DNA from: a virus
Taxonomy: Duplodnaviria > Heunggongvirae > Uroviricota > Caudoviricetes
IMG/VR virus record: IMGVR_UViG_2693429713_000009
Reading direction: 5' to 3' (one strand)
Length of the DNA: 64,000 nt
Shown: one piece after another, positions 8,671 to 58,312 of the stretch
Layout: each line of letters opens with the position of its first letter
Numbering within the stretch: the first letter of the stretch is position 1
Position numbers and translations under genes: made by a program
Notes under the pieces: model-generated
What the model saw: only the letters and a program-made list of their open reading frames with translations
What the model was told of the DNA's origin: nothing
Database searches by the model: none

Positions 8671-8688
8671 TTGCCTTGTTAAGTTAAA

Positions 8689-8697
8689 TTTCTAACA
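8689..8697. promoter_or_regulatory. C1-type operator-like motif TTTCTAACA
   Basis: Member of recurring TGTTAGAAAA/TTTTCTAACA family; followed by AGTGTA-N6-TACACT dyad and a cluster of three GATC sites (8721-8750) upstream of RepL-like gene. Confidence 0.45.
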
Positions 8698-8785
8698 TAG
8701 TGTATTTATATACACTGTTGATCCTGGTGGATGGGATCGAGTAGGATCGCGGTCACTGCTCCGGTAGCGACTGCCAAAAAAGCAA

Positions 8786-8808
8786 AAGCCGCTGAGAAGC
8801 GGCTTTTT
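8786..8808 (+). terminator. intrinsic terminator
   Basis: AAGCCGC-TGAGAA-GCGGCTT followed by TTTTT. Confidence 0.6.
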
Positions 8809-8870
8809 GGGCGTATAAATCCACTGCCATAGATTTATACGGTAGATAGATTTTTTCACGGAACTATCTG

Positions 8871-9833
8871 GTGAGTATTTTAAATTCAGTTTCAGTAACT
8901 TTCAACACTTCTGAGTATAAAAACAACACTGAATACCACAAAAAAATCAAAGGTCATCAGTTGAGTTTTTTTGCTCGTCATAGCGGTCTTCTTTCCCCTT
9001 CACATAGCGCCATTATTGCCGAGTTCGCCAACCTGGCAGGGTCTACCGATGAATACATGATCCGTCGCTCATATGCTGATATGTCCGAGATTACAGGACG
9101 CAGTATTTCTACTGTGCGCCGGGCATTTGCTGAAGCGACGAAGTGCGGAATGCTTGTTAAGCAACATCAGGTAGCGAATAACAATGCCCAGGTGTGTAAC
9201 GTATATCGGTTTACGACACAATTTCTCCACTTCATTCATGTAGCAATGGAGATAGGGGGTAAGCAGGGCATCAAATTTGCCAACGCCACAAAACTGGTTA
9301 AGCAGTTGATTTCAAAGGTTCGTTATTTTTTTGAAACTGGGAACCCCCTGTTCAAATTGAACAAGTCCCCCCATGTTCAAATTGAACAGCCAATAGAAAA
9401 TAAGAGTCACTCTATAGCAAAAAGAAGAGAAAGATCATGCGCGGTTCAGCCAAAGGCTTCACCAGCAGATAGTTCTCAAGCGGATAATGGGGTACTGGAT
9501 AAAAAACCAGTAATCAGGGAAGAACATACCAACCACTGCCTGGCGGCGGCAAAAGCGAGAGCTGCAAAGCGTCGTTCAGACGAGGGGCACGCAAAACGGC
9601 AGGCTCTGTATCGTACCGCTGAAAAGCTGGCAAAAAAATTTGCATGGATACGTAGTGCCGCTACCGCAGTGAATAAGCCTAAACAATCCAGTGCCCTGGA
9701 TTTCTCAATGGATTATTCTGGCTCCCAGGGGTGTGCAACCATTGGTGAAGCCTTTGACCTGATGAAACAGCGTGGCTATCGGTCTGAATTTGACCGTGAG
9801 GATTGGTCAATCCCGGCGGGCTTTAGGGGATGA
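8871..9833 (+). CDS. RepL-like replication protein
   Basis: 320 aa with HTH-like ITGRSISTVRRAF; operator-controlled promoter; internal twin palindromes. Confidence 0.4.
   Translation: MSILNSVSVTFNTSEYKNNTEYHKKIKGHQLSFFARHSGLLSPSHSAIIAEFANLAGSTDEYMIRRSYADMSEITGRSISTVRRAFAEATKCGMLVKQHQVANNNAQVCNVYRFTTQFLHFIHVAMEIGGKQGIKFANATKLVKQLISKVRYFFETGNPLFKLNKSPHVQIEQPIENKSHSIAKRRERSCAVQPKASPADSSQADNGVLDKKPVIREEHTNHCLAAAKARAAKRRSDEGHAKRQALYRTAEKLAKKFAWIRSAATAVNKPKQSSALDFSMDYSGSQGCATIGEAFDLMKQRGYRSEFDREDWSIPAGFRG
9349..9388. repeat. two copies of 15-bp palindrome TGTTCAAATTGAACA inside RepL-like CDS
   Basis: Perfect dyads at about 9349-9363 and 9374-9388; candidate origin element. Confidence 0.5.
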
Positions 9834-9887
9834 CCTGTGTGTCTACAAAACATCCCAATGATCGGAAAATGCTCGCTCGATGATTTG

Positions 9888-9917
9888 TGTTAGAAAATTA
9901 ATTTGATGTTTCTAAAT
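9888..9917. promoter_or_regulatory. paired operator-like motifs TGTTAGAAAA-N11-TTTCTAAAT
   Basis: Inverted pair of the recurring motif upstream of the icd/antirepressor unit. Confidence 0.5.
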
Positions 9918-10019
9918 CGGAATGTATGATCTGCATCATCGACTGAAGTCATCCATTGCTGAAATTTTTAGTTGATCTTCCATGTTTTCAGGCTTATATT
10001 CATGCCGTCGTAGCAAATT

Positions 10020-10215
10020 CTGCGACCGGGTTTGACAGCCTGAATACTTACGCGGACAACCGCACATTTCCGATATTGCGGTATTTTTGTGTCCGTAAAA
10101 CCACGTTACGCCCGAATTATGGTGGGGCGTGATGGGGAGGCTTCGGCCTGCTGGTTTCGTAAGTGCCAGTCTGTCAACCCTGTCACGTCCTGCCACCTGT
10201 TTGACAGCGGGTCGC
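10020..10215 (+). ncRNA. candidate c4-like antisense RNA region
   Basis: Non-coding leader upstream of icd-like gene with direct repeats GTTTGACAGC (about 10029 and 10199) and complementary CTGTCAACCCTGTCAC (about 10172). Confidence 0.25.
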
Positions 10216-10246
10216 AGGTTGTTTATCAACTTACGAGGCCGTAACT

Positions 10247-10471
10247 ATGGTTAATGCCAATCCTTGCTCACGCCCAGAATTCATCTGGCGTTTCCACTCC
10301 CTGCAAAAACACTGCGATCACTTCGCAATTGCCGCAACCGAAAAAGAAGCCCGTTCTCTGATCCCTGATCAGTATGGTGTTCTTACTGGTCGTTTCTCTA
10401 CTTCCCCACAACCAAACACTAATCCCTGGTATCGCAATATTACCAATCCCGGAATTGCGGAGGCACACTGA
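10247..10471 (+). CDS. Icd-like small protein
   Basis: 74 aa ORF ending in TGATG overlap with antirepressor start, as P1 icd-ant. Confidence 0.35.
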   Translation: MVNANPCSRPEFIWRFHSLQKHCDHFAIAATEKEARSLIPDQYGVLTGRFSTSPQPNTNPWYRNITNPGIAEAH

Positions 10472-11178
10472 TGGAAATCTGCATTCTTGAAAAGCCATCA
10501 ATGACCAGCATTGAGATCGCGGAGCTGGTGGGAAGTCGCCCGGATAACGTTAAACGCACTATTGAACGCTTGAGTAAATCAGGTGTTATTCCACTTCCTC
10601 CAATGGAGGTTTCCGAAAATATCAATAACTTAGGATTTAAAGTTAAAAATTCACACTACGTCTTCGAAGGCGAGCAAGGCAAGCGTGACAGTATCATTGT
10701 CGTTGCGCAGCTTTCTCCCGAATTTACCGCCCGGCTGGTGGACCGCTGGCGCGAACTGGAAGAACAAGTACGCCAGCCGTTGACCGAAATAGAGATGATC
10801 GCCGCAATGGCTGCAAATGCAGTTCAGCAGCAAAAGCGGCTTCATGTTGTTGAGTCAAAGGTTAGCCAGGTGGTAGAAACCGTCGAGCAAATCAAGAAGG
10901 GCAACATGCCAGATGGTTACATTGGCTACCGCCAGCTGGCTGCGAAATGTGGCCTGACCGAAGCCAAATGCCGCAACCTTGTCAACGCTTACCGGATTCC
11001 CACCGATACACATGAGTTTTTAACTCCAGAGGGGGTATTGTCGCGTCGTTCCATCGTGGCCTTATCTCCCTTCATGAATGCTTTTAACCGGATGATGTCG
11101 GAGGCTGAACACCGAGGAAAACGCTGGTATCACCCCAAAATGGGGCAATTCCAGGTGATCGGTTGGGGAGGTGAGTGA
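10471..11178 (+). CDS. antirepressor, Rha/Ant family
   Basis: 235 aa; N-terminal Rha-like regulatory domain. Confidence 0.5.
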   Translation: MEICILEKPSMTSIEIAELVGSRPDNVKRTIERLSKSGVIPLPPMEVSENINNLGFKVKNSHYVFEGEQGKRDSIIVVAQLSPEFTARLVDRWRELEEQVRQPLTEIEMIAAMAANAVQQQKRLHVVESKVSQVVETVEQIKKGNMPDGYIGYRQLAAKCGLTEAKCRNLVNAYRIPTDTHEFLTPEGVLSRRSIVALSPFMNAFNRMMSEAEHRGKRWYHPKMGQFQVIGWGGE

Positions 11179-11375
11179 TGGACATCATGCAGGCGGTAAA
11201 AAAAATCAGGGAAGGACAGGCTGAAGTGTGCCGCCGTAAAGCATGGAGTGTTGGTGTATGGGCCTGGCCTGATAATTACTCTACTACCGGATGGTTTTGT
11301 ATTAATGGACTCCAGATCCGGGAAGTTGATTTATCGACGGCTGATATAGTCGGTAATGATTGGATCGTGACTTGA
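11175..11375 (+). CDS. DUF2829-like small protein
   Basis: 66 aa; REGQAEVCRRKAWSVGVWAW and C-terminal DWIV resemble DUF2829/Tad2 signature; ATGA overlap with upstream gene. Confidence 0.35.
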   Translation: MMDIMQAVKKIREGQAEVCRRKAWSVGVWAWPDNYSTTGWFCINGLQIREVDLSTADIVGNDWIVT

Positions 11376-11383
11376 AGCGTGAT

Positions 11384-11408
11384 GCCCCGGCCTGGCCGGG
11401 GCTTTTTT
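11384..11408 (+). terminator. intrinsic terminator
   Basis: GCCCCGGCC-T-GGCCGGGGC then TTTTTT. Confidence 0.6.
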
Positions 11409-11893
11409 CATGCCTCATTAGTTGAGGTTGCTGCGTCTCCGACTGGTAACAGAGCGGTATTGCGTGGTTCGCCAGCAGGCCAGCGATAGCCAGACACTCT
11501 TGATGTTGGGAATGCGCGAATATTAACCGCATCCCCCTGGTTCCCACCCAGGACAAGCAGATCGCCATTGGCGCGGCGTCCGACAACGAAGCCTACGTGC
11601 CCACCGCCTACGCGGGTAAATACAACGATACATCCGTATGCCGGTGTATCTAATTTCTCGCCCCAATCCAGATAGGATTTTGCCGACTCAAATCTTGTTG
11701 AGCGGATGCCTACACGTTCCAGCATTGCACCGACAAATGCTGCGCACCACGGCGTTTCATCGTCTTTAATTCCGCCGCGCTTGATGTCGCGCCAGAACTG
11801 AACGATTTCAGGGTTGTGTTTAGCGCCTTTTATTTCAGTCAGGCCAATGTGCTTACGGGCTTCAATTAGCCAGCGAGGTTCAATGTTTGCCAT
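11408..11893 (-). CDS. CHAP/NlpC-P60-like cell wall peptidase
   Basis: 161 aa; catalytic-like Cys in TPWCAAFVG and His in GGHVGFVVG. Confidence 0.5.
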   Translation of the reverse strand: MANIEPRWLIEARKHIGLTEIKGAKHNPEIVQFWRDIKRGGIKDDETPWCAAFVGAMLERVGIRSTRFESAKSYLDWGEKLDTPAYGCIVVFTRVGGGHVGFVVGRRANGDLLVLGGNQGDAVNIRAFPTSRVSGYRWPAGEPRNTALLPVGDAATSTNEA

Positions 11894-23314: not shown

Positions 23315-23391
23315 GGTGGTGTAGCTCAGTAGGATAGAGCAGCAGCCTTCTAAGCTGTCGGTCGGTGGTTCGAATCCACCCACCATCGCCA
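23315..23391 (+). tRNA. tRNA-Arg (anticodon TCT)
   Basis: Cloverleaf by eye: acceptor GGTGGTG/CACCATC, D arm GCTC..GAGC, anticodon loop CTTCTAA, T arm GGTGG-TTCGAAT-CCACC, encoded CCA. Confidence 0.75.
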
Positions 23392-23396
23392 ATTTA

Positions 23397-23483
23397 GGGG
23401 AGTTAGTCCGTAGGGGTAGCGGGGTAGACTGTAAATCTACTGTCATTGCGACTCGGATGGTTCGACTCCATCACTCCCCACCA
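23397..23483 (+). tRNA. tRNA-Tyr (anticodon GTA), long variable arm
   Basis: Acceptor GGGGAGT/ACTCCCC, anticodon stem-loop GTAGA-CTGTAAA-TCTAC, variable arm TGTCATTGCGACTCG, T arm GATGG-TTCGACT-CCATC, CCA. Confidence 0.65.
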
Positions 23484-23487
23484 AATT

Positions 23488-23563
23488 GCCGGTTTTGCTC
23501 AGTTGGTAGAGCGCCTGCCTTGTAAGCAGGATGTCAGCGGTTCGAGTCCGTTAACCGGCACCA
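23488..23563 (+). tRNA. tRNA-Thr (anticodon TGT)
   Basis: Acceptor GCCGGTT/AACCGGC, D arm GCTCAGTTGGTAGAGC, anticodon loop CTTGTAA, T loop TTCGAGT, CCA. Confidence 0.8.
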
Positions 23564-23564
23564 A

Positions 23565-23673
23565 CACAACAGGTAAGGGTATTTTGCGACGTCGGAGATC
23601 GCCGAGCTTGGCAGAGGGTTCGAATCCCTACGAAGTACCCTTACCGTTGTGATGAATGCGCAGGCTGATGCGC
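23565..23673 (+). repeat. long-stem hairpin repeat unit A (tRNA trailer element)
   Basis: CACAAC(A)GGTAAGGGTA pairs with TACCCTTACCGTTGTG; encloses T-arm-like AGGG-TTCGAAT-CCCT; followed by GATGAATGC and GCGCA-GGCTGA-TGCGC hairpin. Confidence 0.6.
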
Positions 23674-23753
23674 GAAAGACATTGCAGCTATTGCGGAAAA
23701 GAGCTGTCCGGCGGGGCAATTAAACGCCCGTGAGAGTCTGAAATAACCGCAAG

Positions 23754-23778
23754 CCGGAGATCAGCACCGGTCATCACA
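23754..23778 (+). other. conserved leader motif CCGGAGATCAGCACCGGTCATCACA
   Basis: One of three near-identical 25-nt copies preceding tRNA or trailer elements. Confidence 0.45.
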
Positions 23779-23856
23779 ACACAACAGGTAAGGGCATTCT
23801 CCTTATGGGGCTTGGCTTAAATGCATCGAGTGCTCTTACCGTTGTGATGAAGTGCA
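23775..23856 (+). repeat. long-stem hairpin repeat unit B
   Basis: ACAACAGGTAAGGGCATTC pairs with GAGTGCTCTTACCGTTGTG, then GATGAAGTGC tail. Confidence 0.55.
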
Positions 23857-23984
23857 GCTCTTAGAAGCAACCAGAAGATAAGCATCTGGCTTCACAACAT
23901 AAACCGCAGGAACGACCAATAAACGGTAGTCCGTATGGAGAACACCCCGTTGAGGAAGAGGCCTGGCCGGAACCGTAACCGGCA

Positions 23985-24101
23985 CTACAACGTTGAGAAC
24001 ACTGGCGTAACGGGGTCATATCCCAATCTATGAATAAATGTTGCGTTGCCGCGTGACAACCAGTGTTCTCAACATTGTGGTGAATGCACAGGCTGATGTG
24101 C
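23985..24101 (+). repeat. long-stem hairpin repeat unit C
   Basis: CTACAACGTTGAGAACACTGG pairs with CCAGTGTTCTCAACATTGTGG; stem sequence differs from unit A but flanks ACAAC and GTGGTGAATGC plus GCACA-GGCTGA-TGTGC hairpin are conserved; preceded by a tRNA-Thr-like 3' remnant. Confidence 0.55.
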
Positions 24102-24148
24102 CGCAACTACAGTAGTGCGCGCTTTGCGGGGCTTGCTACAACCCTGTG

Positions 24149-24173
24149 TCGGAGTTCAGCACCGACCATCACA
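24149..24173 (+). other. conserved leader motif TCGGAGTTCAGCACCGACCATCACA
   Basis: Second copy of 25-nt leader. Confidence 0.45.
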
Positions 24174-24260
24174 GTTTGATTCTCTGGCATGAGCATAACG
24201 CTGAAATAAGTCCAGTCTGGTGCGGTCTGATCACCCGCCGTTAGCTCCACGAAACGGAGC

Positions 24261-24371
24261 GCACAACAGGTAAGAGTATTTGTAGAGTTCGACTCTCTAC
24301 CGTGGGCTTTTTCCCGCGATGCGAGCCATAAATGCTCTTTCCGTTGTGGTGAATGCGCGTTGCTGGCGCGC
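24261..24371 (+). repeat. long-stem hairpin repeat unit D
   Basis: GCACAACAGGTAAGAGTATTT pairs with AAATGCTCTTTCCGTTGTGG; encloses T-arm-like GTAGAG-TTCGACT-CTCTAC; GTGGTGAATGC plus GCGCG hairpin. Confidence 0.55.
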
Positions 24372-24470
24372 AAGTCCGCCCTATGGCAACGAGGCGGTGT
24401 AGTAAATATCGATGCCTCAGTCATCAAGCGTACTGACCGGCCTTATGGGCTATGAAAAAAAGAGGCGCAG

Positions 24471-24494
24471 TCGGCGATCAGCACCGACCATCAC
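24471..24494 (+). other. conserved leader motif TCGGCGATCAGCACCGACCATCACA
   Basis: Third copy, directly upstream of tRNA-Ser-like element. Confidence 0.45.
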
Positions 24495-24501
24495 AATCAC
24501 T

Positions 24502-24588
24502 GGAGAGTAGGGAGCATGGTGCTCAAGCGGCCTTGAAAACCGTCCCATTGCGCAAGCGATGATGGTTCGATTCCATTACTCTCCGCCA
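24502..24588 (+). tRNA. tRNA-Ser-like (anticodon TGA) element, possibly degenerate
   Basis: Acceptor GGAGAGT/ACTCTCC plus G-CCA, anticodon loop CTTGAAA as in bacterial tRNA-Ser(UGA), T arm GATGG-TTCGATT-CCATT, long variable region; D arm and anticodon stem imperfect. Confidence 0.4.
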
Positions 24589-24720
24589 GTGCAACGTTAA
24601 GAGTATTTGGCTAATTAAGCGAATGCCGGAAGCAGAACCGGATCACCAAATGCGTACAGGCGTCATCGCCGCCCAGCCAGCCAAGTGCTCTTACCATTGC
24701 GGTGAATGCGGCTAAGCGCA
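24589..24720 (+). repeat. long-stem hairpin repeat unit E
   Basis: CAACGTTAAGAGTATTTGGCT pairs with AGCCAAGTGCTCTTACCATTGCGG; GTGAATGC plus TGCG-GCTAAG-CGCA hairpin. Confidence 0.5.
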
Positions 24721-24796
24721 CGCGGAACAGTTAAAACAATTTTCCTTAATAGTTAAGTCAAACATCCCGGCGTTAATTGTTAACTGGTTAACGTCA

Positions 24797-24811
24797 CCTG
24801 GAGGCACCAGG
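24797..24811 (+). repeat. CCTGG-AGGCA-CCAGG hairpin (GGAGGCACC family)
   Basis: Same loop as 22589 and 25605 copies with compensatory stem changes. Confidence 0.5.
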
Positions 24812-25211
24812 CACCGCAATCTAATAAAGTTTCAAGCAATGGAGTTTTTGTTGTCAGACTTCAGATATAGATGGTTGTGGAAGGAGAGCCTGTGCATAGT
24901 GCAGTTATTTCTTCCGCTATTTGTCTGCTTTTTCATGCTTCCTGAGCTGAAATACGCAATTTCAGACACTTTAAGCACTATCGTTACTTTTGTGTTTTAT
25001 CTTTACTTTGATTACTTATTGAGCACTAAAATCAATGAATTATCCGAGGAAATGCAAGGTGGCTGTAAGTGATGAATTTTTGGGCGTTTGCCGATAAGAA
25101 CCCTGGTTGGACATTTTTATTTTTGCTGGTGGTTGCATATGGGGTCGAGCAAGCGGCAAAAGCCTTACGCGGTTCTGGCAAAAAGCGTAAGCGGAATTAA
25201 CAGTAATCTGG

Positions 25212-25287
25212 CCCTTTAGCTCAGTGGTTAGAGCAGGCGACTCATAATCGCACGGTCACCGGTTCAAATCCGGTAGGGGCCACCATA
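25212..25287 (+). tRNA. tRNA-Ile2 (anticodon CAT, lysidine type)
   Basis: Near-identical by recall to E. coli ileX: GGCCCTTTAGCTCAGTGGTTAGAGCAGGCGACTCATAATCGC...TTCAAATCC...GGGGCCACCA. Confidence 0.75.
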
Positions 25288-36507: not shown

Positions 36508-36886
36508 AAATATTGGAACCATATAGTTCACGTAGTTTTTCCGCTACTGAAGATACGGGGATTTCACCAGTTGCAGCCCCCACCGCAAGTTCCACCAGCA
36601 CGGGAGAATCATATACCTGTATACCGTTACGGCGTAGAAATAGCAGCGCACTGTTTAGCGCGGTACGCTTATTGGCATCATTGAATATATGCCCTCTCGC
36701 TGTAGCCACCAGGTAGGTGGCGGAGACTTCGAAAAGGTCGGTGATCTCTTCGTAGGCAACTCTGGCCTGAACTCTCCCGATAATGGCCTCTGCCCTACCC
36801 GGATCTGACATTCCCGGCAGGCCGCCGTAGCGGTTTATATTCGCATCATGAAGCGCAATAAGTTCTTCCGGTGATATATGCCTCAT
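36506..36886 (-). CDS. doc: Doc toxin (Fic family)
   Basis: 126 aa near-identical to P1 Doc as recalled. Confidence 0.9.
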
Positions 36887-37107
36887 TATCGGTTAACCAG
36901 TTCCTTGTTGGTGGAGTCCAGGGTGTCAAACAGGGATGCAAATTCAGCATCCAGCGCCGCTTTTTTGTAGGCTTCGAAAGTAGCCTTGCTGACAATTACT
37001 GCTGGCTCACGGCCTCTGCGGGTGATTTCAACCTCTTCCCCGGCTTCAACATTGTTGAGCACTTCAGAAAGGTTGCCGCGCGCGGTACGGAAGTTAATGG
37101 ATTGCAT
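36886..37107 (-). CDS. phd: Phd antitoxin
   Basis: 73 aa [16 protein letters not shown]..., overlaps doc start. Confidence 0.9.
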
Positions 37108-49774: not shown

Positions 49775-49805
49775 TGTTAGAAAATCTATTTTGAATATCT
49801 AACCA
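49775..49805. promoter_or_regulatory. operator-like motifs in divergent promoter region
   Basis: TGTTAGAAAA at 49775 and ATCTAACCA at 49797 between leftward operon and ref. Confidence 0.45.
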
Positions 49806-49852
49806 TTTTGATCAATCATAGAAAAATCGCTGAAAAGTAAGAGGCTGCCATC

Positions 49853-50431
49853 ATGCAGAAACAGAGCTATTGGGAGAAACAGAGGCAAAAAGCCATGCAA
49901 AAATTGGCTGACCCGGCCTGGCGAGAGGAACAAAGGGCAAAGCGCCTTCAACAAGCTCAACGCCAGCAGCAGCGAGCGAGAGAAAAAGCCGCATCGCCTG
50001 AATATCGGCAAAAAAAAATTGAAAAAGCAAAGCAATATGACCAGCGGAGAAAAGAGAAAGCTGTATCCGCTCCGTCCAAAAAAACACGCACGTCACGCGG
50101 CCTGAAGGGCAGATCACTCACAGCCGATGAACGCCGGATACAGACCGCTATCGGTACTCTCCCCTGCATTGCCTGCCATATTCACGGGAAACATAGCCCA
50201 GTGGTATCCCTGCACCATATCTTCGGGAGAACGGCAGAGAACGCACATAAATATGTCCTCCCTTTGTGTAAATGGCACCACCAGTACGCAGCGCCAGCCG
50301 AGGTCCGAGAACAATATCCCTGGCTGGTCCCTGTTCATGCTGATGGAAAAATAGGCGGAAAAGCAGATTTCATACGGCACAATGCCGATGAAATGGCGTT
50401 GTATCAGATGGCGATTGAATTGATAAATTAG
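49853..50431 (+). CDS. ref: Ref HNH endonuclease
   Basis: 192 aa; LPCIACHIHG...SLHHI.GRT...LPLCKWHHQYAAPAEVREQYPWLVPVHADG matches P1 Ref as recalled. Confidence 0.8.
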   Translation: MQKQSYWEKQRQKAMQKLADPAWREEQRAKRLQQAQRQQQRAREKAASPEYRQKKIEKAKQYDQRRKEKAVSAPSKKTRTSRGLKGRSLTADERRIQTAIGTLPCIACHIHGKHSPVVSLHHIFGRTAENAHKYVLPLCKWHHQYAAPAEVREQYPWLVPVHADGKIGGKADFIRHNADEMALYQMAIELIN

Positions 50432-50440
50432 TTTTCTAAC
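50431..50440. promoter_or_regulatory. operator-like motif TTTTCTAACA
   Basis: Immediately after ref stop. Confidence 0.4.
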
Positions 50441-50763
50441 ATTTTAAGTTGAATTGTGAATTTCCCCGATGTACATTCACTACCGATTGGTACACCGGTC
50501 AACTTTTTGAGACAAACTGTTTAGTTTTTCGTATTATTGCCGCCGCCATACCTATGGCGGTGCAATATAGGTGGCTGAAAAGCCCCCGTTGACTCACGGT
50601 GTTCCAGCCTTTATTGCGCCGCCACCAGACCGTGGAACAGTCGATGGCGGCTCCGAAAGCAAGGAGTCACTACACTATGAACAACTACAGTCTTTTCCCA
50701 TCACTCGTCGTCCACCACTCACGCGATAATCTGCATTCTTTACTCGCGCCGGGGGTGTCAAAA

Positions 50764-50937
50764 TGACTGTTCGCTACCTCAACTTTCAAATCAAGAACAT
50801 TACTGGCGGTTGCTATGACTGGTTTGTCACTCTCGGAAAAGAAGTGATTACTGGTAAACTGGATGAAGTGAAAGCTAAAGCAATGGCCTACGCCTGCAAG
50901 CAAACCAGGAAGAAATCAACCAAGCATAAAGCCTGAA
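50764..50937 (+). CDS. small hypothetical protein (not in ORF track)
   Basis: 57 aa ORF with GGGGGTG upstream. Confidence 0.3.
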
Positions 50938-50998
50938 GGTGTAGGGTTACCCGGGGTCGTCGGGGCTTTAACTACTAAATAACCGGATTCTCCGCACG

Positions 50999-51310
50999 AT
51001 GAAGAAAATAGATTTCACTTACTCTGCTGCCACAATCCAGCGACGTTTCAGTCTCATAAGGGAAGTAGAACTATCAAAAAACTGTTATCAAATTCTACTG
51101 GATGAAGAGTTTTCGCTGATGATAATGGCAGAAAAATTGGCTATGCCGAATGACCGGCACAAAGTCATTGCCAGCCTGGATCTGGTGACAAATAGATACA
51201 GGGAAACAGAGGAACTACGTGAAGCGGGAGCAATGCGTGACCTGATGGATAATTCCGTTCCCCGTCGTTATCGTACGGGGAACGACATCTCCGTGATTAA
51301 AGGGGCTTAA
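50999..51310 (+). CDS. hypothetical protein
   Basis: 103 aa. Confidence 0.4.
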   Translation: MKKIDFTYSAATIQRRFSLIREVELSKNCYQILLDEEFSLMIMAEKLAMPNDRHKVIASLDLVTNRYRETEELREAGAMRDLMDNSVPRRYRTGNDISVIKGA

Positions 51311-51699
51311 AGCTCACCTGTGCGCTGTTTTTCAAGCACAGATTTAACATTTGGCGCTTTCCCTTTAAAAGAATGGAAAGTGCCACATTTTTCTGTTTTA
51401 ACCTCGCGCAGAGCTTCTCCATCGGCGTTCTGCCATTGATGGGATAATGTCATATCACCGCGAGAAGGAACATCCAGCGAGTACAGCGTATAAGTTCCCC
51501 CCATCTCCGCATACTCCTGGAACACATAGCTCATTACGTCAGATTCAGTTTTTCGGTGTGCGTTATCAACCTTATTCCCATTCAGAAATATGGCATCCGG
51601 ATAGATTTTTATATCAAACCGACCGCACTTAACTTGTAAATTTCCGGCGCTCGCGATCAAAGGGAAAGACGCCAGTAAAGCAATAGCCAATCTTTTCAA
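51307..51699 (-). CDS. exported protein
   Basis: 130 aa; signal peptide MKRLAIALLASFPLIASA. Confidence 0.5.
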   Translation of the reverse strand: MKRLAIALLASFPLIASAGNLQVKCGRFDIKIYPDAIFLNGNKVDNAHRKTESDVMSYVFQEYAEMGGTYTLYSLDVPSRGDMTLSHQWQNADGEALREVKTEKCGTFHSFKGKAPNVKSVLEKQRTGEL

Positions 51700-51719
51700 T
51701 TCTGCCTCCGCTGCGTAAC

Positions 51720-52343
51720 TTATTGCCCGTATTTTTTACACCATTGCTCTGCCATTTGTTTGGCTAAAGGCCCGGCTACTGCACTGTATTCTGCTGTTTT
51801 ACTTTGCACACATGAAGCAGATGGTTTTTTATTTCGCTGCTCGGTTAGTTTGCGCTCATAAGCCATCATGCTATCGAACCCGGCAATATCACTTTGGCGA
51901 AGCATTCCCTTTTTAACCAAAAATTGCTGCCCCTCGGGCACCAATGCAAGCATAAAAAGTGGTTGCAATAACTCACCTAATCCTTGCTGGCGATACACTT
52001 CGAATTGCTGCCATCCCTGACTTAATCTGGAAAGAGTATCTTTGGTTGAGTAACCTGTTTTTGTTATAGCTTTGTCCGTCAGATATGCTGTATATGCAAA
52101 AACGCAAAAGTCAGTTTTACCAATAAACTGAGTTCCAACAGGCCGTAATGGAATGCCCTCCCTCTTGCAAAAGTCCATAATGGCCGCTTGTGAATGATCC
52201 CCACCAGCGTTATTCATAACCTGCTGCCCTGCCCTGAATTGTGCAGGTAACGCAGTTGCATTGGCAGTATTAGCAGATACGCATCCCAACATAGCCGCGA
52301 GCGCGGCCCCTAAAACCCTTAACTTCACTACACCATCCTTCAT
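51720..52343 (-). CDS. putative lipoprotein
   Basis: 207 aa; signal peptide with lipobox-like MLGC. Confidence 0.5.
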   Translation of the reverse strand: MKDGVVKLRVLGAALAAMLGCVSANTANATALPAQFRAGQQVMNNAGGDHSQAAIMDFCKREGIPLRPVGTQFIGKTDFCVFAYTAYLTDKAITKTGYSTKDTLSRLSQGWQQFEVYRQQGLGELLQPLFMLALVPEGQQFLVKKGMLRQSDIAGFDSMMAYERKLTEQRNKKPSASCVQSKTAEYSAVAGPLAKQMAEQWCKKYGQ

Positions 52344-52438
52344 GTAAACAAAATGAAGTTTTATGTTATAAAAACAATTAACTACATCAACATGATTTAG
52401 GCCAAATTTCGGTCAAAAAATAAAATCCACAAAAAGTG

Positions 52439-52584
52439 GTTGACACTATTTTGGAAATCACAAACTGCACATAATCCATCGCGCTAACGGCTCCCGTTGA
52501 AGGTTCTTTTGACGATTAACTTTCAGCCGAAGCGCGGTAGGGAGTCATAACGCCAAAGCAGGCCGCCATGTGCGGCCTTTTTTT
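52439..52584 (+). ncRNA. candidate leader or small RNA (promoter-like TTGACA to terminator)
   Basis: TTGACA at about 52439, then about 110 nt ending in AGGCCGC-CATGT-GCGGCCT plus TTTTTTT directly upstream of the 52612 gene. Confidence 0.3.
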
Positions 52585-52611
52585 GTATCCGTCATCCGTG
52601 GAGGAAGGACA

Positions 52612-53265
52612 ATGGAAAAGATCGCAATATTCAGCCTGACCACCAGCAAGCCTCAAATGCTCACTGCAATACTGAAAGACGGTGCTCTCATTATTAACGA
52701 AGTAAAACCCCTTCCCGCGTCAGCATTGGAGCAAAAGCAAAAAATTCCTCCAGCTATAGCAGCCCTGCGGAAAAGCAAATTCAAGGTTCTAGTAGACGAA
52801 ATTACGCCAACGATCTCCGCTGGCACCGGAGCAAGCCAGGTGACTCTCAAGACCCGTCATGCCGATGGTAGAGCAGCAATCATCGTCGGGATGGAAAGAT
52901 ACAGAGAGTTAAAACTCCAGAAACTATTATCCCTGCCGCAAAATAACAAAGGTGCTTTCGAAATCCCCGACTCTATCGTTGATACCGAATACAACGGTAA
53001 CGGAGAAGAAGTCTACAGGGTGAACTGGCAGGATATCAGGCCGGAGCATATTCTGATGATCCTGTGTTGCTACGCGACCGTATACCACAACGTTGCCAGT
53101 GCAGATTACGTAGAGCAGATGACCGGTACAGTCGAGAAAGAGCAAAAAACAGGCATACTCGCTTCGTTCCTGTCCATTATTGGGCATGAAAAAGTTAAAG
53201 CAGGCACCTCCCAGCCAAAGTCACTGGCTGGGAAAGAAGTTGATGAAGATACCGTGATACTTTGA
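52612..53265 (+). CDS. hypothetical protein
   Basis: 217 aa from ATG with GGAGGAAGG upstream. Confidence 0.45.
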   Translation: MEKIAIFSLTTSKPQMLTAILKDGALIINEVKPLPASALEQKQKIPPAIAALRKSKFKVLVDEITPTISAGTGASQVTLKTRHADGRAAIIVGMERYRELKLQKLLSLPQNNKGAFEIPDSIVDTEYNGNGEEVYRVNWQDIRPEHILMILCCYATVYHNVASADYVEQMTGTVEKEQKTGILASFLSIIGHEKVKAGTSQPKSLAGKEVDEDTVIL

Positions 53266-53400
53266 TCACATTAGTAGCTTTGTTAACTCCCTCAATACCA
53301 GGTAGAAGAGTAACAAAAATATTGACGCGAGTATTTGAGTGGTCAATGAAGCGTTCATAAACAGATCAATTAGCATTAATAATTCGAAGATAACATCCAT
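53266..53400 (-). CDS. small hydrophobic peptide (candidate membrane toxin-like)
   Basis: 44 aa MDVIFELLMLIDLFMNASLTTQILASIFLLLFYLVLRELTKLLM with GGAG upstream; hairpins in its 5' region. Confidence 0.25.
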   Translation of the reverse strand: MDVIFELLMLIDLFMNASLTTQILASIFLLLFYLVLRELTKLLM

Positions 53401-53593
53401 GTCATTCACTCCGTTTAATTTTTAATCTAATGCCAGCAAATGAAGCTGGCCCCCGCATAAAGATTAATGAAAGTCACTTGTCACCAGTGAGGGGATTTAT
53501 GAACCACATCCCCCTGAACTGGTGGCCTGTCTGTTTCTCGCATTTCACACCCTGCATACAGTTTCCCCCAGGTTATGACTGAGAGGCTTTGTT

Positions 53594-53923
53594 ATGGGCT
53601 ATAGCAGACTCGACGATAGGTACATTGAAGACGATATTTTTCGTGCGCTGTTTCACCAGGAAATGATTAAGCGGGTATCGGAGTATCACTCTGATAATTT
53701 CCAGTACACGATAAAGATTGATGAAGTATATCGTTCAGACCTTGCAGCCTACAGGGCGTATGGCAATGCAGATTTGCGCTGGGTATTCCGGGTGCTGGTG
53801 GGCCATGAGTCAGAAATGGAAGAAATGCCCGCCGGGACCACGTTAACTCTTCCTGATGTGGCATGGCTGAGGAACAAGATCCGTGATTACGCGAGCGCGG
53901 AACCGGAGATAGAAAATGCCTGA
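53594..53923 (+). CDS. hypothetical protein
   Basis: 109 aa, overlaps start of SWIM gene. Confidence 0.4.
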   Translation: MGYSRLDDRYIEDDIFRALFHQEMIKRVSEYHSDNFQYTIKIDEVYRSDLAAYRAYGNADLRWVFRVLVGHESEMEEMPAGTTLTLPDVAWLRNKIRDYASAEPEIENA

Positions 53924-55112
53924 TTTCCTGAAAAACCAGGACGGGCGCTATATCACTGACGGCCTGTCCTCTAAGGACTTCACGCGTTTATTCGACCTTA
54001 TCAGGAAAGAACAAACCCGTAAGCGCCGACAAGCTCACCGGACGCTGACGCCAGGTAGACTGAGGAACAAATCCGCCGAAGATATTCTCAAGTTAGGGAA
54101 GAAAAAAGGCGGCACGTTCTTCACGCGAGACGACCTGAAAGGTTTCGAAAAGCTACGGAGTAAAACACGCGAAAAATATGACAGCAAGACGGCTGGCATC
54201 ACATACGCCCAGCTGGTGGCATCCAGCCAAGCAATCGATATTAAGCGTGCAAATAACGCCGTGGATGACGGATCTGGTATCAAAAGAGCTACACCCGTAT
54301 CTCTTCGCCACAACGTGATTAATATCCGCGTAGAAGCATCGGATATATCCGTCCACCAGCACCATATCGTCCGGATACGCTTTGAAGAATGGGATCAGAT
54401 GGTCGATGACATCGCAGAAGACGATAAATCAGCCCTGAAAATCACTAAATCACTGTGCGCCGGGCGGGTGTCTTTCGATTGTGACTGTGGTCGTCATCAA
54501 TACTGGTATCGTTACATCGCTACTGCGGGTAACTTTGCCCTGGCCCCGCCAAAAGAATACGCCTATCCAAAAGTTCGTAACCCTAAGCTACAAGGCGTCG
54601 CCTGTAAACACGTGATCCACTCAATGACGCGGTTACAGTCCGCTAGTTGGCAAATGAGTATTGCTCGTGCGTTACAAAAGGCCGCAACGCAAATTGCATT
54701 TGGTGACGATCGCCGCCGTACAACCAAACACTTCTCAAAAGAAGACGAGAGGGAGTTTAATCGCAATCGCAACAGTAAAACAAACGTTGACGTTGCCAAG
54801 CGCGAATGGAGGCTCTATCAGAAGCGCCAGGCCGCTTTAAGCACAAAACTGGCAAAGGACAACGGCAAAATTGACAAGCTACGTGACCAATTGACCAAAG
54901 CCAGAAAGTTGTCAGACGCACAGAAAAAACGGGCGGCAGCAAAAGAAGCGGCCTTGCAACGTGAGAAACAGAAAAACAAGGAGCTTCAGCAACGCCTTGC
55001 CGATCAGTTCGCACTGAAGAAGCAGGCGTTCATTGATGCGCTTGTCATGGCAGGAACGTCACCTGAGCAAGCTGAAAAAATGTTTATGGAGTATGTGAAG
55101 AAAGGTTCTTAA
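53916..55112 (+). CDS. SWIM zinc-finger protein with basic coiled-coil tail
   Basis: 398 aa; CDCGRH...CKH pattern; Lys/Arg-rich helical C-terminus. Confidence 0.45.
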   Translation: MPDFLKNQDGRYITDGLSSKDFTRLFDLIRKEQTRKRRQAHRTLTPGRLRNKSAEDILKLGKKKGGTFFTRDDLKGFEKLRSKTREKYDSKTAGITYAQLVASSQAIDIKRANNAVDDGSGIKRATPVSLRHNVINIRVEASDISVHQHHIVRIRFEEWDQMVDDIAEDDKSALKITKSLCAGRVSFDCDCGRHQYWYRYIATAGNFALAPPKEYAYPKVRNPKLQGVACKHVIHSMTRLQSASWQMSIARALQKAATQIAFGDDRRRTTKHFSKEDEREFNRNRNSKTNVDVAKREWRLYQKRQAALSTKLAKDNGKIDKLRDQLTKARKLSDAQKKRAAAKEAALQREKQKNKELQQRLADQFALKKQAFIDALVMAGTSPEQAEKMFMEYVKKGS

Positions 55113-55121
55113 TTTACAACA

Positions 55122-55146
55122 AAGGCGGTTATCCCGCCTTTTATAT
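55122..55146. terminator. hairpin terminator
   Basis: AAGGCGG-TTATC-CCGCCTT then TTTT. Confidence 0.5.
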
Positions 55147-55883
55147 TACTTGTCCTTTGATGTCGATTGAGACTCATATATTGTCTCCACGTCATCTATT
55201 AATTTATTAATACCCCACAATCCAGTGTCTTTATAAAAATCACTTTCTTCAATTGCTTTTAATAAATCGGCAAAATCTTCTTTGGTGGAAATCCTTTTAT
55301 CTTTTGCTTTATATATATCAACAATTACTTTTATACCGTGATACAGAGCCACTCTGGCACTCTCAATCTCTCTCTTCTTTTCTTCGATTGTATTCAGTAT
55401 TTTTTGTTGACCTTCTATTTGTTCCTCTAATTTTAAAAGCTCTTCCTCTTTTTTCTTTAGGTTTCTCAGTAACGCCTTTACTCTTGCTTTCTCTTCTGAG
55501 TCAAATTCATGGTCAATGTATCTTATTTGCGCATAATTTCTACCAGTTAGTTTTGATATACGCATAGTAATATAAGGCATTACTATGGACGCAATAGTGC
55601 CATATATAAACGGCATCACAAAGTGAGCTAAAAACGGAGATACAATGAAGGTTCCAAAATAAGGGATTTGATATTTATCCCCTACCCATACTATAGACAG
55701 TGTTGTGTATATATCATATTTAGATTTAAACAAAATTAGTATTTCTTGCCAATTAACGACAAAAAATGAAACCACCACATATGCAAATAATTTATTAAAT
55801 AATTTATCTTTTATGGCTTCATCCATTGTGCCCTTGATTGAGTCAATTGTAGATGTGTTTTCTGTTGATGAATTTTTGCTCAT
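55146..55883 (-). CDS. AT-rich membrane protein with cytoplasmic coiled coil
   Basis: About 245 aa; GC content by eye roughly one third, far below flanks; multiple TM segments then Lys/Glu-rich coiled coil. Confidence 0.5.
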   Translation of the reverse strand: MSKNSSTENTSTIDSIKGTMDEAIKDKLFNKLFAYVVVSFFVVNWQEILILFKSKYDIYTTLSIVWVGDKYQIPYFGTFIVSPFLAHFVMPFIYGTIASIVMPYITMRISKLTGRNYAQIRYIDHEFDSEEKARVKALLRNLKKKEEELLKLEEQIEGQQKILNTIEEKKREIESARVALYHGIKVIVDIYKAKDKRISTKEDFADLLKAIEESDFYKDTGLWGINKLIDDVETIYESQSTSKDK

Positions 55884-55945
55884 ACAAGCTATCAAACCTT
55901 CTAATTTTTATTTTAGATAAAAAGCGGTCCTCCAGACCGCCAAAC

Positions 55946-56305
55946 TTAAACACCAACCAGACTTTCCAGTGGAATACCAAACTGGGCATGTAAACGACGA
56001 ATCATAGGTAACGTCAAATTTCGTGTCCCATTAAGCACTTCGTAAACACGGTTTGACTTACCAATTGCCGGTTCCAGATCCTTCACGGTCAGCCCTTGCT
56101 GTTCCATACGGAATTTAATGGCCTCAATAGGTGATGGTGGCTCAATTGGGTAATGTTTTTTCTCGTACTCCTCAATGAGAAGACACATAACCTCAAAGAA
56201 ATCGCCTTCCGGTGTGTTCATTTCCGGTTCATTATCGAACATCGGTTCGACCGCACGCAGTGCGGCCTCATAATCTTGTTCTGTACGGATAGGTTTAATG
56301 TTCAT
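55946..56305 (-). CDS. higA: HigA-like antitoxin (HTH)
   Basis: 119 aa with C-terminal HTH; downstream of toxin. Confidence 0.65.
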   Translation of the reverse strand: MNIKPIRTEQDYEAALRAVEPMFDNEPEMNTPEGDFFEVMCLLIEEYEKKHYPIEPPSPIEAIKFRMEQQGLTVKDLEPAIGKSNRVYEVLNGTRNLTLPMIRRLHAQFGIPLESLVGV

Positions 56306-56308
56306 GAT

Positions 56309-56611
56309 TTACTCCAGTTCTATTGTATCCGCTTCAATGGCATCGTATTCCTTATGTGTTCCAATAAACTTAACGAACATCCATCCTCGCTGATAAGCAA
56401 TTGCGACAATTAACCTGTAATCATTTCCCTTAATATTGAACACCACGCGCCTGTTTTTAAGGATGCTGGCTGTCCGGTACTGTTCTTTGATCTCAGCCGG
56501 ATTTTTCCAGTCAGCCTTTGTTGCTTCATCAACCCATGCCTTTAATGGCTGTTCTGCATCGGGATTCTTCGCCCAGAAATCCCTTAGTGTTTTTACCGAA
56601 ATTATTTTCAT
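56309..56611 (-). CDS. higB: HigB-like toxin (RelE/ParE superfamily)
   Basis: 100 aa from MKIISVKTLRDFW; THKEYD motif; toxin precedes antitoxin. Confidence 0.65.
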   Translation of the reverse strand: MKIISVKTLRDFWAKNPDAEQPLKAWVDEATKADWKNPAEIKEQYRTASILKNRRVVFNIKGNDYRLIVAIAYQRGWMFVKFIGTHKEYDAIEADTIELE

Positions 56612-56638
56612 CACAGATTCCTTCTCTCTGAAAGTATA

Positions 56639-56688
56639 GTAGTCCCAATATGGGACAATGTAAAGCACTTTAGTCCCATGCTGGGATA
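56639..56688. promoter_or_regulatory. higBA operator-like dyads
   Basis: Two TAGTCCCA-N4-TGGGA palindromes upstream of higB. Confidence 0.5.
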
Positions 56689-56756
56689 TGAATTGAAATC
56701 ACAATCTCCAGACAATGCACCCTCGATACCTGATAAATCGACCTTTGAGGATGCTT

Positions 56757-57548
56757 ATGGGCCGTTTTGACGAATGGTTTGCTGACGATGCAAACCTGGC
56801 AAGTAAGAAGTCAGAACATGACAGCACGCAGAGAGAAACGCCAGCGCCGATTGAAGCGAATGCAGGAGGCACGCCGGAACATGGCAATACCGGTTCGGAT
56901 TCATTCAGCATTCTGGAAGAGCAACCCGCCGCCAAAGCTGATAGCCATGATAATTTTGCTGATAGCAACGGTGGCCTTACTCCGGATGCTGGCGAATCAG
57001 ATATAGCCATACTTCCACCTTCCCTGGCTGGCAGAGAACCAACTCCACAGCTAAAAGCACGCTATAACGGGCATAAAGCCTTTAACGACCAAATCCGCGC
57101 AGACTGGATGCTGATTATTGAATCCAGCCCAGACGCGTTTCAGGCTCTCTTATATCGACCAGATGTTGGCACATATGGGGTAGTCAGCGACGAAACAGGA
57201 GAAGAGTCATTCACTGAACTGGATAACAACCAACGCGAACTGACTTACCAGGAACCTGAAATCGTTTATGTGCTGGATAACCCGGACGGGCGTGACTCTT
57301 TCCATGCGATTGACGCAGACGGTGAGCAGGATGGTTTAACCGATGATGTTCTGATTCTGCGTATTGCAGCAAATAACGTCCCCGTCGGATCAATTCTTGA
57401 ATGGAATGAAGAGATGGTAAACGGCGTAGCCCGCCGCTGGTGGTACGTGCACCGTATTTTTAGCTACGGCACACAGCATGTTGGTTCGCTTTACTACTGC
57501 ATACCTGCCAGAAATTTTGATACGACTCAAAACGGAGTGATCGAATGA
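56757..57548 (+). CDS. hypothetical protein, possible tail/baseplate module
   Basis: ATG at 56757 after GAGGATG; acidic N-terminal half. Confidence 0.4.
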   Translation: MGRFDEWFADDANLASKKSEHDSTQRETPAPIEANAGGTPEHGNTGSDSFSILEEQPAAKADSHDNFADSNGGLTPDAGESDIAILPPSLAGREPTPQLKARYNGHKAFNDQIRADWMLIIESSPDAFQALLYRPDVGTYGVVSDETGEESFTELDNNQRELTYQEPEIVYVLDNPDGRDSFHAIDADGEQDGLTDDVLILRIAANNVPVGSILEWNEEMVNGVARRWWYVHRIFSYGTQHVGSLYYCIPARNFDTTQNGVIE

Positions 57549-58312
57549 CTTCAAATAAAACCCTCCTGGCGCGAACAGGTGAATGGCAAACATCACGCAC
57601 AGGAAAATTCCAGACCACGGGCTTTGAAAACGTGGATAACGCGTTTGCTACGCTAATCAGCAATATCTTTTCTGATATCTTACTGGTGGCCCCCGCGCCG
57701 GAAGAAAAACGCTTTGCGTCATTCCTGAATCGTCCACCAGCAGAGCGTGTCTATGTGGCCCGTTTTGACAATGCGATCGAGTTTCTTAAAGCAGTTCGTC
57801 GCGCAAATGCCGGGCAAGGGAGAAAACCTGAAAACCAGAACATTAACCGGGATGCTCTCCCCCTAGTCAATATCTCACGCACTATGGATATCAATTATAT
57901 CAACGATGATCAGCAGATTGACCGCAAAAAAGTAGCCAGTTTTTGCGAACCAGATACCGGAATGCCTTTAGCAGAACTGGAATACACCCAGGCCATTCTG
58001 ACGTATGACGTTACGTTAATGGCAACTGATAAAGCGACCATGAGTCTGATGTGTAATTCGCTGGGCGCACGGCTTCGCCTGATGACAGGTACACAATTTG
58101 AAGCAACCACTCACCTTGTTCGTGTCCCGGTCCCGCTGATTTGCTCGATACAGGATGCCAAAGAAGTCGGCTTTACGGATGTTTCAGCACCAATTGGAGA
58201 AGAGCGTATTTATGCCACACAAGCGCCGATAAGTGTGATTGCAGACGTGATCACAGCATGGGAGTTGGACGCAAAACGTATTATTACCGAAACCTCGATA
58301 TCTATGGGGTGA
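57545..58312 (+). CDS. hypothetical protein, possible baseplate module
   Basis: 255 aa, overlapping starts. Confidence 0.4.
   Translation: MTSNKTLLARTGEWQTSRTGKFQTTGFENVDNAFATLISNIFSDILLVAPAPEEKRFASFLNRPPAERVYVARFDNAIEFLKAVRRANAGQGRKPENQNINRDALPLVNISRTMDINYINDDQQIDRKKVASFCEPDTGMPLAELEYTQAILTYDVTLMATDKATMSLMCNSLGARLRLMTGTQFEATTHLVRVPVPLICSIQDAKEVGFTDVSAPIGEERIYATQAPISVIADVITAWELDAKRIITETSISMG

Follow-up and report, generated by a model that had tools for sequence, protein, structure and literature searches.

What fills the interval between ref and the baseplate genes of a P1-group phage-plasmid, the place where P1 carries its type III res-mod system, and could any of it be exclusion or defence cargo? 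We addressed this question in IMG/VR virus record IMGVR_UViG_2693429713_000009, of which a stretch of 64 kb (hereafter the window) was analysed, for the region at positions 50432-56714 (6.3 kb). An earlier reading of this DNA from its letters only (hereafter the sequence-only reading) had described the region as a block of cargo genes with no counterpart in P1, standing there instead of mat, res and mod, and as a likely hotspot for defence or superinfection exclusion. The region is rather a mosaic, of which about half is conserved D6/P1 backbone, interrupted by three short accessory slots, here named A, B and C. The explanation we favour, at a rough probability of 55%, is that in this conserved backbone slot A would carry an exported exclusion pair, slot C a late peptide, and slot B a higBA addiction module together with a separate membrane protein of the moron type.

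Megablast and synteny identify the element as a D6-like, P1-group phage-plasmid. Using positions 49800-57600 as query, megablast matched a single phage, D6 (NC_050154; 73% coverage, 96% identity), as well as 152 plasmids, nearly all non-mobilizable and about 90 kb in size. Among them, pGMI14-002_2 of Salmonella Concord matches the window over the query at 100% identity. The gene order in the window is ref, C4-like RNA, a 57 amino acid (aa) open reading frame (ORF), pmgF, the 207/130-aa genes (slot A), mat, the 44-aa peptide gene (slot C), 26, 25, a transmembrane (TM) protein gene with higA and higB (slot B), 7, 24, 6, 5, hrdC and dmt. D6 and D6-like prophages such as pYU39_89 and pGMI14-002_2 have the same order, ref, (c4-like), pmgF, slot, mat, 26, 25, slot, 7, 24, 6, 5 and hrdC, with backbone proteins 95-100% identical to those of the window, and the order after mat (26-25-island-7-24-6-5-hrdC-dmt) matches that of D6. 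P1 has res-mod after ref-mat, and its genes 25 and 7 adjoin each other. All ORFs named by the sequence-only reading are present where it had placed them; it is the nature of several that differs. The backbone features are the following.

50550-50629, plus strand: C4-like antisense RNA of the immI type, a second, diverged copy (Rfam RF01695).
50763-50936, plus strand: 57-aa ORF, homologue of D6 orf85 (94% identity; phrog_7786, 1e-41).
50999-51310, plus strand: PmgF homologue, 103 aa (37% identity to P1 PmgF, E 2e-9 by tblastn; 84% to D6 orf81, annotated as pmgF-like).
52612-53265, plus strand: mat homologue, maturation control protein, 217 aa (33% identity to P1 Mat, E 1e-35 by tblastn).
53594-53923, plus strand: gene 26 homologue, baseplate wedge protein, T4 gp53-like, 109 aa (41% identity to P1 gp26, E 1e-18; phrog_1269 'baseplate wedge subunit', 2e-36).
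53916-55112, plus strand: gene 25 homologue, tail ('tail stability') protein, 398 aa (56% identity to P1 gp25, E 4e-123; phrog_1722 'tail protein', 5e-196).

Genes were assigned to the backbone by P1 homology together with a conserved position in the lineage, and mat, 26, 25 and pmgF have both. The 217-aa Mat is 99.5% identical to D6 orf78, which is annotated as 'maturation control protein, similar to P1 gene mat', and in P1 PmgF bears the label 'putative morphogenetic function'. P1 gp26 is T4 gp53-like and has been placed in the P1 baseplate by electron cryomicroscopy (bioRxiv 10.1101/2025.07.21.665459; PMC9024508), and P1 gp25 is a 'tail stability' protein found to be virion-associated by liquid chromatography coupled to tandem mass spectrometry (LC-MS/MS; PMC9024508). 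The comparison of the slots covered the window, D6, seven plasmids and 22 IMG/VR loci, with P1 compared as complete genome by tblastn. Genes mat, 26 and 25 are present in 22 of the 22 IMG/VR loci and in all plasmids examined, at 92-100% identity, and they recur in a more distant element, Enterobacter hormaechei p60214CZ_1. By their similarity to P1 and D6, Mat, gp26, gp25 and PmgF are conserved backbone proteins with assigned regulatory or morphogenetic roles.

The 109-aa and 398-aa ORFs, which overlap by 8 nucleotides, had been taken for a coupled cargo pair with a SWIM protein. They correspond to baseplate gp26 and tail gp25, and the 398-aa protein has no SWIM match in Pfam at E <= 0.01. It does contain a CxC-x38-CxH motif (residues 189-232), the spacing of which exceeds that of typical SWIM domains (CxCxnCxH). 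The motif is unchanged in both P1 gp25 and the Enterobacter homologue, which makes it a property of that tail protein family, where it suggests zinc binding. That the whole of 50432-56714 would be foreign cargo that replaced mat/res/mod and encodes an undescribed defence system fits the fact that a search of the window for res, which did not include mod, gave no homologue, the reality of the motif, and the lack of Pfam, NCBIfam or PADLOC matches for several genes. It is nevertheless very improbable: Mat, gp26, gp25 and PmgF are P1 homologues at conserved D6 positions, gp26 is structural and gp25 virion-associated, the motif belongs to the P1 protein as well, and among D6-like elements these four genes are 97-100% conserved, in contrast to the variable true slots. 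The sequence-only reading had itself named homologues at conserved positions with assigned functions as the finding that would speak against it, and mat, 26, 25 and pmgF are such genes, because P1 homologues with assigned roles stand at conserved D6 positions. An apparently independent, non-structural occurrence of gp26 and gp25, a chromosomal cluster of '109 + 360 aa + TM protein' in Klebsiella grimontii, was rejected because what is left there is a decayed piece of a P1-like element, in which mat is a remnant and gene 25 is frameshifted. This P1/D6-like remnant (chromosome CP067380; positions 8001-11433 of our locus L010) also includes gene 26 and a TM-protein homologue, and the integrase-bounded island around it carries umuDC, HicAB, a Cap4 nuclease and a TIR protein.

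Variation among the relatives is restricted to a few junctions. Between the C4-like RNA with the 57-aa ORF and pmgF, ash-icd-ant is either present or absent. Some relatives have a three-gene dcd module between pmgF and the 130-aa gene. The junction adjoining mat holds either the 207/130-aa pair or a SimB-like gene. At the mat-26 junction there is the 44-aa peptide gene alone, a RelE/HigA pair (L008, L018, L021), insertion sequence IS2 (L019), or nothing (the Enterobacter element). The junction between 25 and 7 holds a toxin-antitoxin (TA) pair and TM protein in several versions. The dcd module, as seen in E. coli p95_MLI121 (L006, 3758-5750), encodes proteins of 101 and 357 aa and a dCTP deaminase-like protein of 205 aa and occurs in several D6-like plasmids. 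The idea of a recombination or cargo hotspot with exchanged genes is supported because the same junctions hold differing cargo among relatives; what did not survive is the notion of a single block, since about half of it is backbone and mat has not been replaced. Likewise, the comparison across P1-like elements that the sequence-only reading had proposed bears out variable slots, yet mat-26-25 is in all loci. Parts of the block are present in 122 of 5,426 complete E. coli genomes, and because at least 80% of it is carried by only 22 of these, and by only one at an identity of at least 99%, the block is regarded as a mosaic. The surroundings of simB have been noted before as a divergent part of D6-like prophages (PMC6799933).

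At the first junction, the C4-like RNA gives a full-length match to RF01695 of 40.2 bits, which is below the gathering score of 45 (E 4e-5). The canonical immI (c4-a1b1, C4, icd) lies at 9994-10429 near repL, with its C4 at 10115-10200 scoring 69.6. As compared with D6 and two related loci (L006, L008), ash-icd-ant, of about 1.5 kb, is missing between 50930 and 50950 of the window; D6 has icd-ant after its c4-like RNA, and the 3' end of the 57-aa ORF abuts the deletion junction. In the relatives the second C4-like RNA precedes ash-icd-ant, the window copy having been orphaned by the deletion. Such an orphan C4 could still target, in trans, an ant operon brought in by a relative. A homologue of the 57-aa ORF with 61% identity is found at the equivalent position in the Enterobacter element, and pmgF is missing in one relative (L009).

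Slot A, the junction adjoining mat, contains two genes.

51307-51699, minus strand: 130-aa predicted exported protein with signal peptide (MKRLAIALLASFPLIASA, followed by GN) and two cysteines; matches phrog_13864 only.
51720-52343, minus strand: 207-aa predicted exported all-alpha protein with four cysteines in the mature part; 202 aa from the annotated start at 52328.

The signal-peptide-like N-termini and the cysteine pairs of both proteins were read from the sequence. The two had been called convergent; they lie in tandem on the minus strand, and it is the 130-aa gene that converges with the 103-aa pmgF gene. The 130-aa protein is rare, with 11 clusters among 5.8 billion proteins, and is 96-99% conserved among D6-like plasmids. 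In the Enterobacter element (L038, 5001-5834) the homologue of the 207-aa protein is fused to the mature part of the 130-aa homologue, yielding one exported protein of 277 aa that adjoins mat. The pair would form a periplasmic two-protein module that acts as a single unit and is encoded divergently from mat. D6 has a SimB-like protein of 298 aa and a TM protein of 116 aa in place of the pair, and D6 orf79, 52% identical to P1 SimB over 86 aa, keeps the first 14 codons of the window's 207-aa gene. The 207-aa allele is found in about 66 plasmids versus about 56 with the SimB-like allele. The pair fills the promoter and signal-peptide slot that in D6 is held by a SimB-like 'superimmunity' protein, and it may exclude incoming related phages in the envelope or otherwise change the envelope of the lysogen. 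The likeness to P1 sim (simABC) is that of small, probably exported proteins of a P1-group prophage, with the D6 SimB-like protein sitting in the window's slot. P1 sim differs in that it lies between pmgC and c4, another genome position than slot A, and in that the 207/130-aa proteins lack sequence or fold similarity to SimA, SimB and SimC; a sim homologue was not found anywhere in this plasmid. The structure model of the 207-aa protein is confident and retrieved no neighbour in the fold search, which left a lysozyme or SLT reading, based on a conserved E and GxGxLLQP motifs, unsupported. For slot A, a homologue is also present on a Vibrio conjugative plasmid, distant from phage genes.

On either side of mat lie a leader and slot C.

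52434-52611, plus strand: mat leader, with a late-promoter-like box, then a structured stretch with a terminator, then the mat ribosome-binding site.
53266-53409, minus strand: slot C, hydrophobic peptide of 44 aa from ATG at 53400 (47 aa from GTG at 53409).
53461-53479, minus strand: P1-type late (Lpa-dependent) promoter-like site, facing the 44-aa peptide gene (AAGTGACTT-TCAT-TAATCT).

The gene of the 44-aa peptide abuts the mat stop codon; its product is identical to D6 orf77 (phrog_38362) and has a single TM-like segment by hydropathy. When the 11 late promoters annotated in P1 were turned into a pattern, only three sites in the entire window matched it, and three of the annotated promoters of P1 have the same -22 box as the site at 53461-53479. 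The peptide is probably expressed late, to judge by this promoter-like site, and it could be a late membrane peptide for lysis or exclusion, or a type I toxin-like peptide. The mat leader has its own late-promoter-like box, AAGTGGTTG-ACAC-TATTTT, at 52434-52452. About 120 nucleotides at 52487-52603 are structured and end, just 5' of the mat ribosome-binding site, in an intrinsic-terminator hairpin at 52560-52578 with a T run (terminator scan), in agreement with the promoter-terminator leader that the sequence-only reading had proposed for the 217-aa gene. The leader block is 81% conserved in the Enterobacter element, the flanks of which do not align, and the alignment shows the terminator stem kept with a different loop. 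The RNA fold has z = -2.7; P1 has no counterpart of the stretch and Rfam no match for it. An attenuator or a small RNA would be possible readings.

Slot B lies between genes 25 and 7, and its description in the sequence-only reading as an AT-rich membrane protein with higBA holds.

55146-55883, minus strand: AT-rich inner-membrane protein of 245 aa, comprising a pair of TM helices (about 32-52 and 79-102), an extended coiled coil and, at the C terminus, a small domain.
55923-55941, minus strand: terminator-like hairpin with T run between higA and the TM-protein gene (terminator scan).
55946-56305, minus strand: higA antitoxin, 119 aa, HTH_3 (Pfam PF01381, 4e-5; PADLOC PD-Lambda-2_B, 7e-43).
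56309-56611, minus strand: higB toxin, 100 aa (Pfam HigB_toxin PF09907, 3e-34; PADLOC PD-Lambda-2_A, 1e-41).
56664-56636 (within 56636-56686), minus strand: higBA promoter-like site, TTTACA-17-TACTAT.

The higBA pair shows the organisation of canonical type II HigBA addiction modules: toxin first, a PF09907 toxin, an HTH_3 antitoxin, a gap of 3 nucleotides on the same strand, and a promoter-like site over an inverted repeat. The latter (56643-56656 / 56673-56686) is a probable HigA operator, and its overlap with the promoter-like site is the one hint of an autoregulated operon. The pair itself is ordinary, and what sets it apart from canonical modules is the recurrent TM-protein gene downstream. 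In the relatives higA is 97-100% conserved or, in many D6-type loci, reduced to a remnant of 65 aa; in D6-type loci, higB is replaced by a PF05015 HigB-like toxin with a helix-turn-helix (HTH) antitoxin. Since phd-doc is also present, at 36515-37107 and 100% and 91% identical to P1, higBA is the second TA module of the element, and two post-segregational killing systems, higBA and phd-doc, have been reported in D6-like plasmids (PMC6799933). Most simply, higBA would be a canonical two-gene module serving as second plasmid-addiction system beside phd-doc.

The only matches of PADLOC in the block are those of higBA to PD-Lambda-2. The likeness consists of a HigB-like first gene, a HigA-like HTH second gene and three genes in a row on one strand. 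In the published PD-Lambda-2 (PMC9519451), HigA is fused to a peptidase in a protein of about 400 aa, and defence also requires a third protein, which is P4-antitoxin-like. HigA of the window, in contrast, has 119 aa, without the C-terminal ImmA/IrrE-type peptidase, and matches only positions 1-119 of the 402-position PD-Lambda-2_B profile, which is why we regard higBA as an ordinary pair. The third gene encodes the 2-TM/coiled-coil protein rather than a P4-antitoxin-like PD-Lambda-2C and has no PADLOC match. Component A is hence present, B and C are lacking, no other ORF in the block matches C, and PD-Lambda-2 identity was rejected for want of a peptidase domain and a C component.

The TM-protein gene has a GC content of 31-33% against 46-50% in its flanks. 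The family is small: a word search gave 20 clusters, and an exhaustive search of 1.84 billion proteins gave 82 representatives at E <= 1e-3. Pfam and PADLOC hold no model for it, and 26 diverse members gave only scattered coiled-coil matches there, such as LmuB and JetC. The AlphaFold2 (AF2) model of the 245-aa protein is helical and of low confidence (predicted local distance difference test, pLDDT, 64.6), too poor for a fold search. Identity between the window and two relatives (L006, L019) drops to 59-83% strictly within 55146-55998, with flanks at 96-100%, and the D6 allele is only 38% identical, next to a PF05015 toxin/antitoxin where the window has higB. The ratio of nonsynonymous to synonymous substitution rates (dN/dS) is 0.21-0.30 for the TM protein versus 0.03 for gene 25, or 7-10 times higher; in the comparison with L016, where dS is similar for both genes, the values are 0.21 and 0.03. 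Between Enterobacter and Klebsiella, HigB and HigA are 99% and 97% identical and the TM protein 50%. All plasmid-borne cases sampled have a type II TA pair immediately upstream of the TM-protein gene, in the same orientation, but the TA family differs.

Window type: HigB (PF09907)/HTH.
D6 type: HigB-like (PF05015)/HTH, with decaying higA.
Enterobacter D6-like element and insertion sequence-flanked Klebsiella IncFIB/IncU plasmids: distant HigB/HTH, 26% identical.
Third P1-group lineage (L041, L044, L049), at the bplB-pmgC junction: HigB/HTH or TacA/GNAT.

Proteins of this third lineage are 42-62% identical to P1 22, 21, pmgG, bplB, pmgC, tub and pmgB. Megablast of L041/L044 against phages gave no match, and tblastn placed them in the P1 group. 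The bplB-pmgC interval is where P1 has immI, repL and the sim genes.

This linkage raises an alternative that we consider the strongest of those weighed, though unlikely in itself: slot B as a single three-gene system, in which the TA pair and the TM/coiled-coil protein cooperate, as in PD-Lambda-2 or toxin-antitoxin-chaperone defence. The TA promoter and hairpin would then, for example, gate expression of the membrane protein when the TA is disturbed by infection, or the membrane protein would sense infection and free the toxin. Besides the constant position 3' of a type II TA pair, the hairpin between antitoxin and TM genes occurs at the equivalent place in the Klebsiella plasmid trio, and the trio has been transferred as a unit into Klebsiella plasmids without phage genes. 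On the other hand, the TM protein occurs by itself in environmental contigs, in a lambdoid prophage, and in a P2-like prophage, where its gene lies between tail genes gpR/gpS and baseplate gene V and is separated from gpS by a 247-aa ORF; D6-like plasmid L009 retains higBA without it; and it stays intact where D6-type higA decays to a remnant. TA modules pile up in plasmid accessory islands anyway, and because the TA family varies, a specific protein-protein partnership is unlikely. Owing to the stand-alone contexts and to the higBA without it in L009, we treat the TM protein as an autonomous gene of the moron type. Under the favoured explanation it would be a stand-alone, fast-diversifying prophage moron that acts at the inner membrane in exclusion or abortive infection. 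It resembles the cargo of tail-cluster hotspots, such as the P2 tail-gene hotspot (PMC13586616), in being an opposite-strand, AT-rich, dispensable gene between tail genes that is swapped among otherwise identical elements, and differs in that the cargo here is no recognised defence system and no function has been assigned to the TM family.

It is plausible that the slot genes act in exclusion or defence, and several of them encode uncharacterised envelope proteins, a class that frequently mediates exclusion. The comparisons establish the identities of the genes, their synteny, the limits of the slots, the exchange of alleles, the fusion of the exported pair, the distribution of the TM family and the lack of a known defence system, whereas every role proposed for the exported pair, for the 44-aa peptide or for the 245-aa protein is an inference. 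PADLOC found no known defence system in the block, the PD-Lambda-2 matches being plain HigB/HigA similarity, and none in the alternative cargo of relatives (dcd, SimB-like, other TA) either. Sequence-profile searches of PDB gave nothing, or coiled-coil noise only. A survey reported only one D6-like phage-plasmid with a complete known defence system (bioRxiv 10.1101/2025.09.12.675607). In P2/P4 hotspots, genes of unknown role are often defensive, and six of the eight tested in P4 were positive (PMC13586616), a precedent that for the present genes is an analogy and not evidence.

Several points weigh against the explanation that we favour. Homology lends no support to exclusion or defence activity of the slot genes; for the 207-, 130-, 44- and 245-aa proteins the searches of PADLOC, Pfam and NCBIfam and those of PDB by sequence and fold were negative. 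The link between slot A and SimB is positional, without sequence similarity, and the active exclusion protein of P1 is SimC, not SimB. Positive selection is not demonstrated because overall dN/dS is below 1. Finally, the recurrent linkage of the TM protein to TA pairs is notable and suggests that the two may not be independent, which runs counter to their being separate units as this explanation has it.

The accessory genes might also have nothing to do with exclusion or defence, with higBA purely for addiction and the others serving the life cycle of the element (lysis timing, envelope remodelling for release, DNA entry), lysogenic conversion (colicin or serum resistance of the host), or merely hitch-hiking neutrally. 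A late-promoter match before the 44-aa peptide suits lysis or another late function, the 207/130-aa genes stay beside mat even in the distant Enterobacter element, and dN/dS is below 1 for all genes, none of which matches a defence database as a system. We judge this quite improbable all the same. The genes are dispensable for the lineage: a SimB-like replacement is found in about half of the plasmids, all are absent from P1, the TM protein is absent in L009, and the peptide in the Enterobacter element. Being swapped like cassettes between identical flanks, and standing as morons in unrelated prophages, is typical of conflict genes, and unknown hotspot genes usually turn out defensive, as in the P4 case above. 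A bolder idea, which we hold to be rather unlikely, is that the 2-TM/coiled-coil family are undescribed inner-membrane anti-phage proteins, coupled in plasmid-borne P1-group elements to an interchangeable upstream TA pair (HigBA, HigB-like/HTH or TacAT) as 'TA + membrane effector/sensor', and that the 207/130-aa pair is a two-component superinfection exclusion system with an unseen fold.

Outside the region, the window has four tRNA genes at 23315-25282. The window as a whole has no match to the P1 C1-operator consensus with up to three mismatches allowed. A search for related loci in the genome collection gave no confirmed locus.

For annotation, it follows that mat, 26, 25 and pmgF are not to be counted as cargo and that PD-Lambda-2 calls on plain higBA are false positives. 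The backbone genes, the canonical TA pair and the accessory slots are annotated or of known kinds, and what is uncharacterised are three envelope proteins in the slots. E. coli, Shigella and Salmonella commonly carry D6-like phage-plasmids, and these reportedly have almost no recognised defence systems (bioRxiv 10.1101/2025.09.12.675607). If the slots encode exclusion or defence, the genes pinned down here would be among the few candidates responsible. The leads are a fused-or-split periplasmic pair without known fold and a small, fast-evolving membrane family that is also a moron in P2-like and lambdoid prophages, all of them short and clonable.

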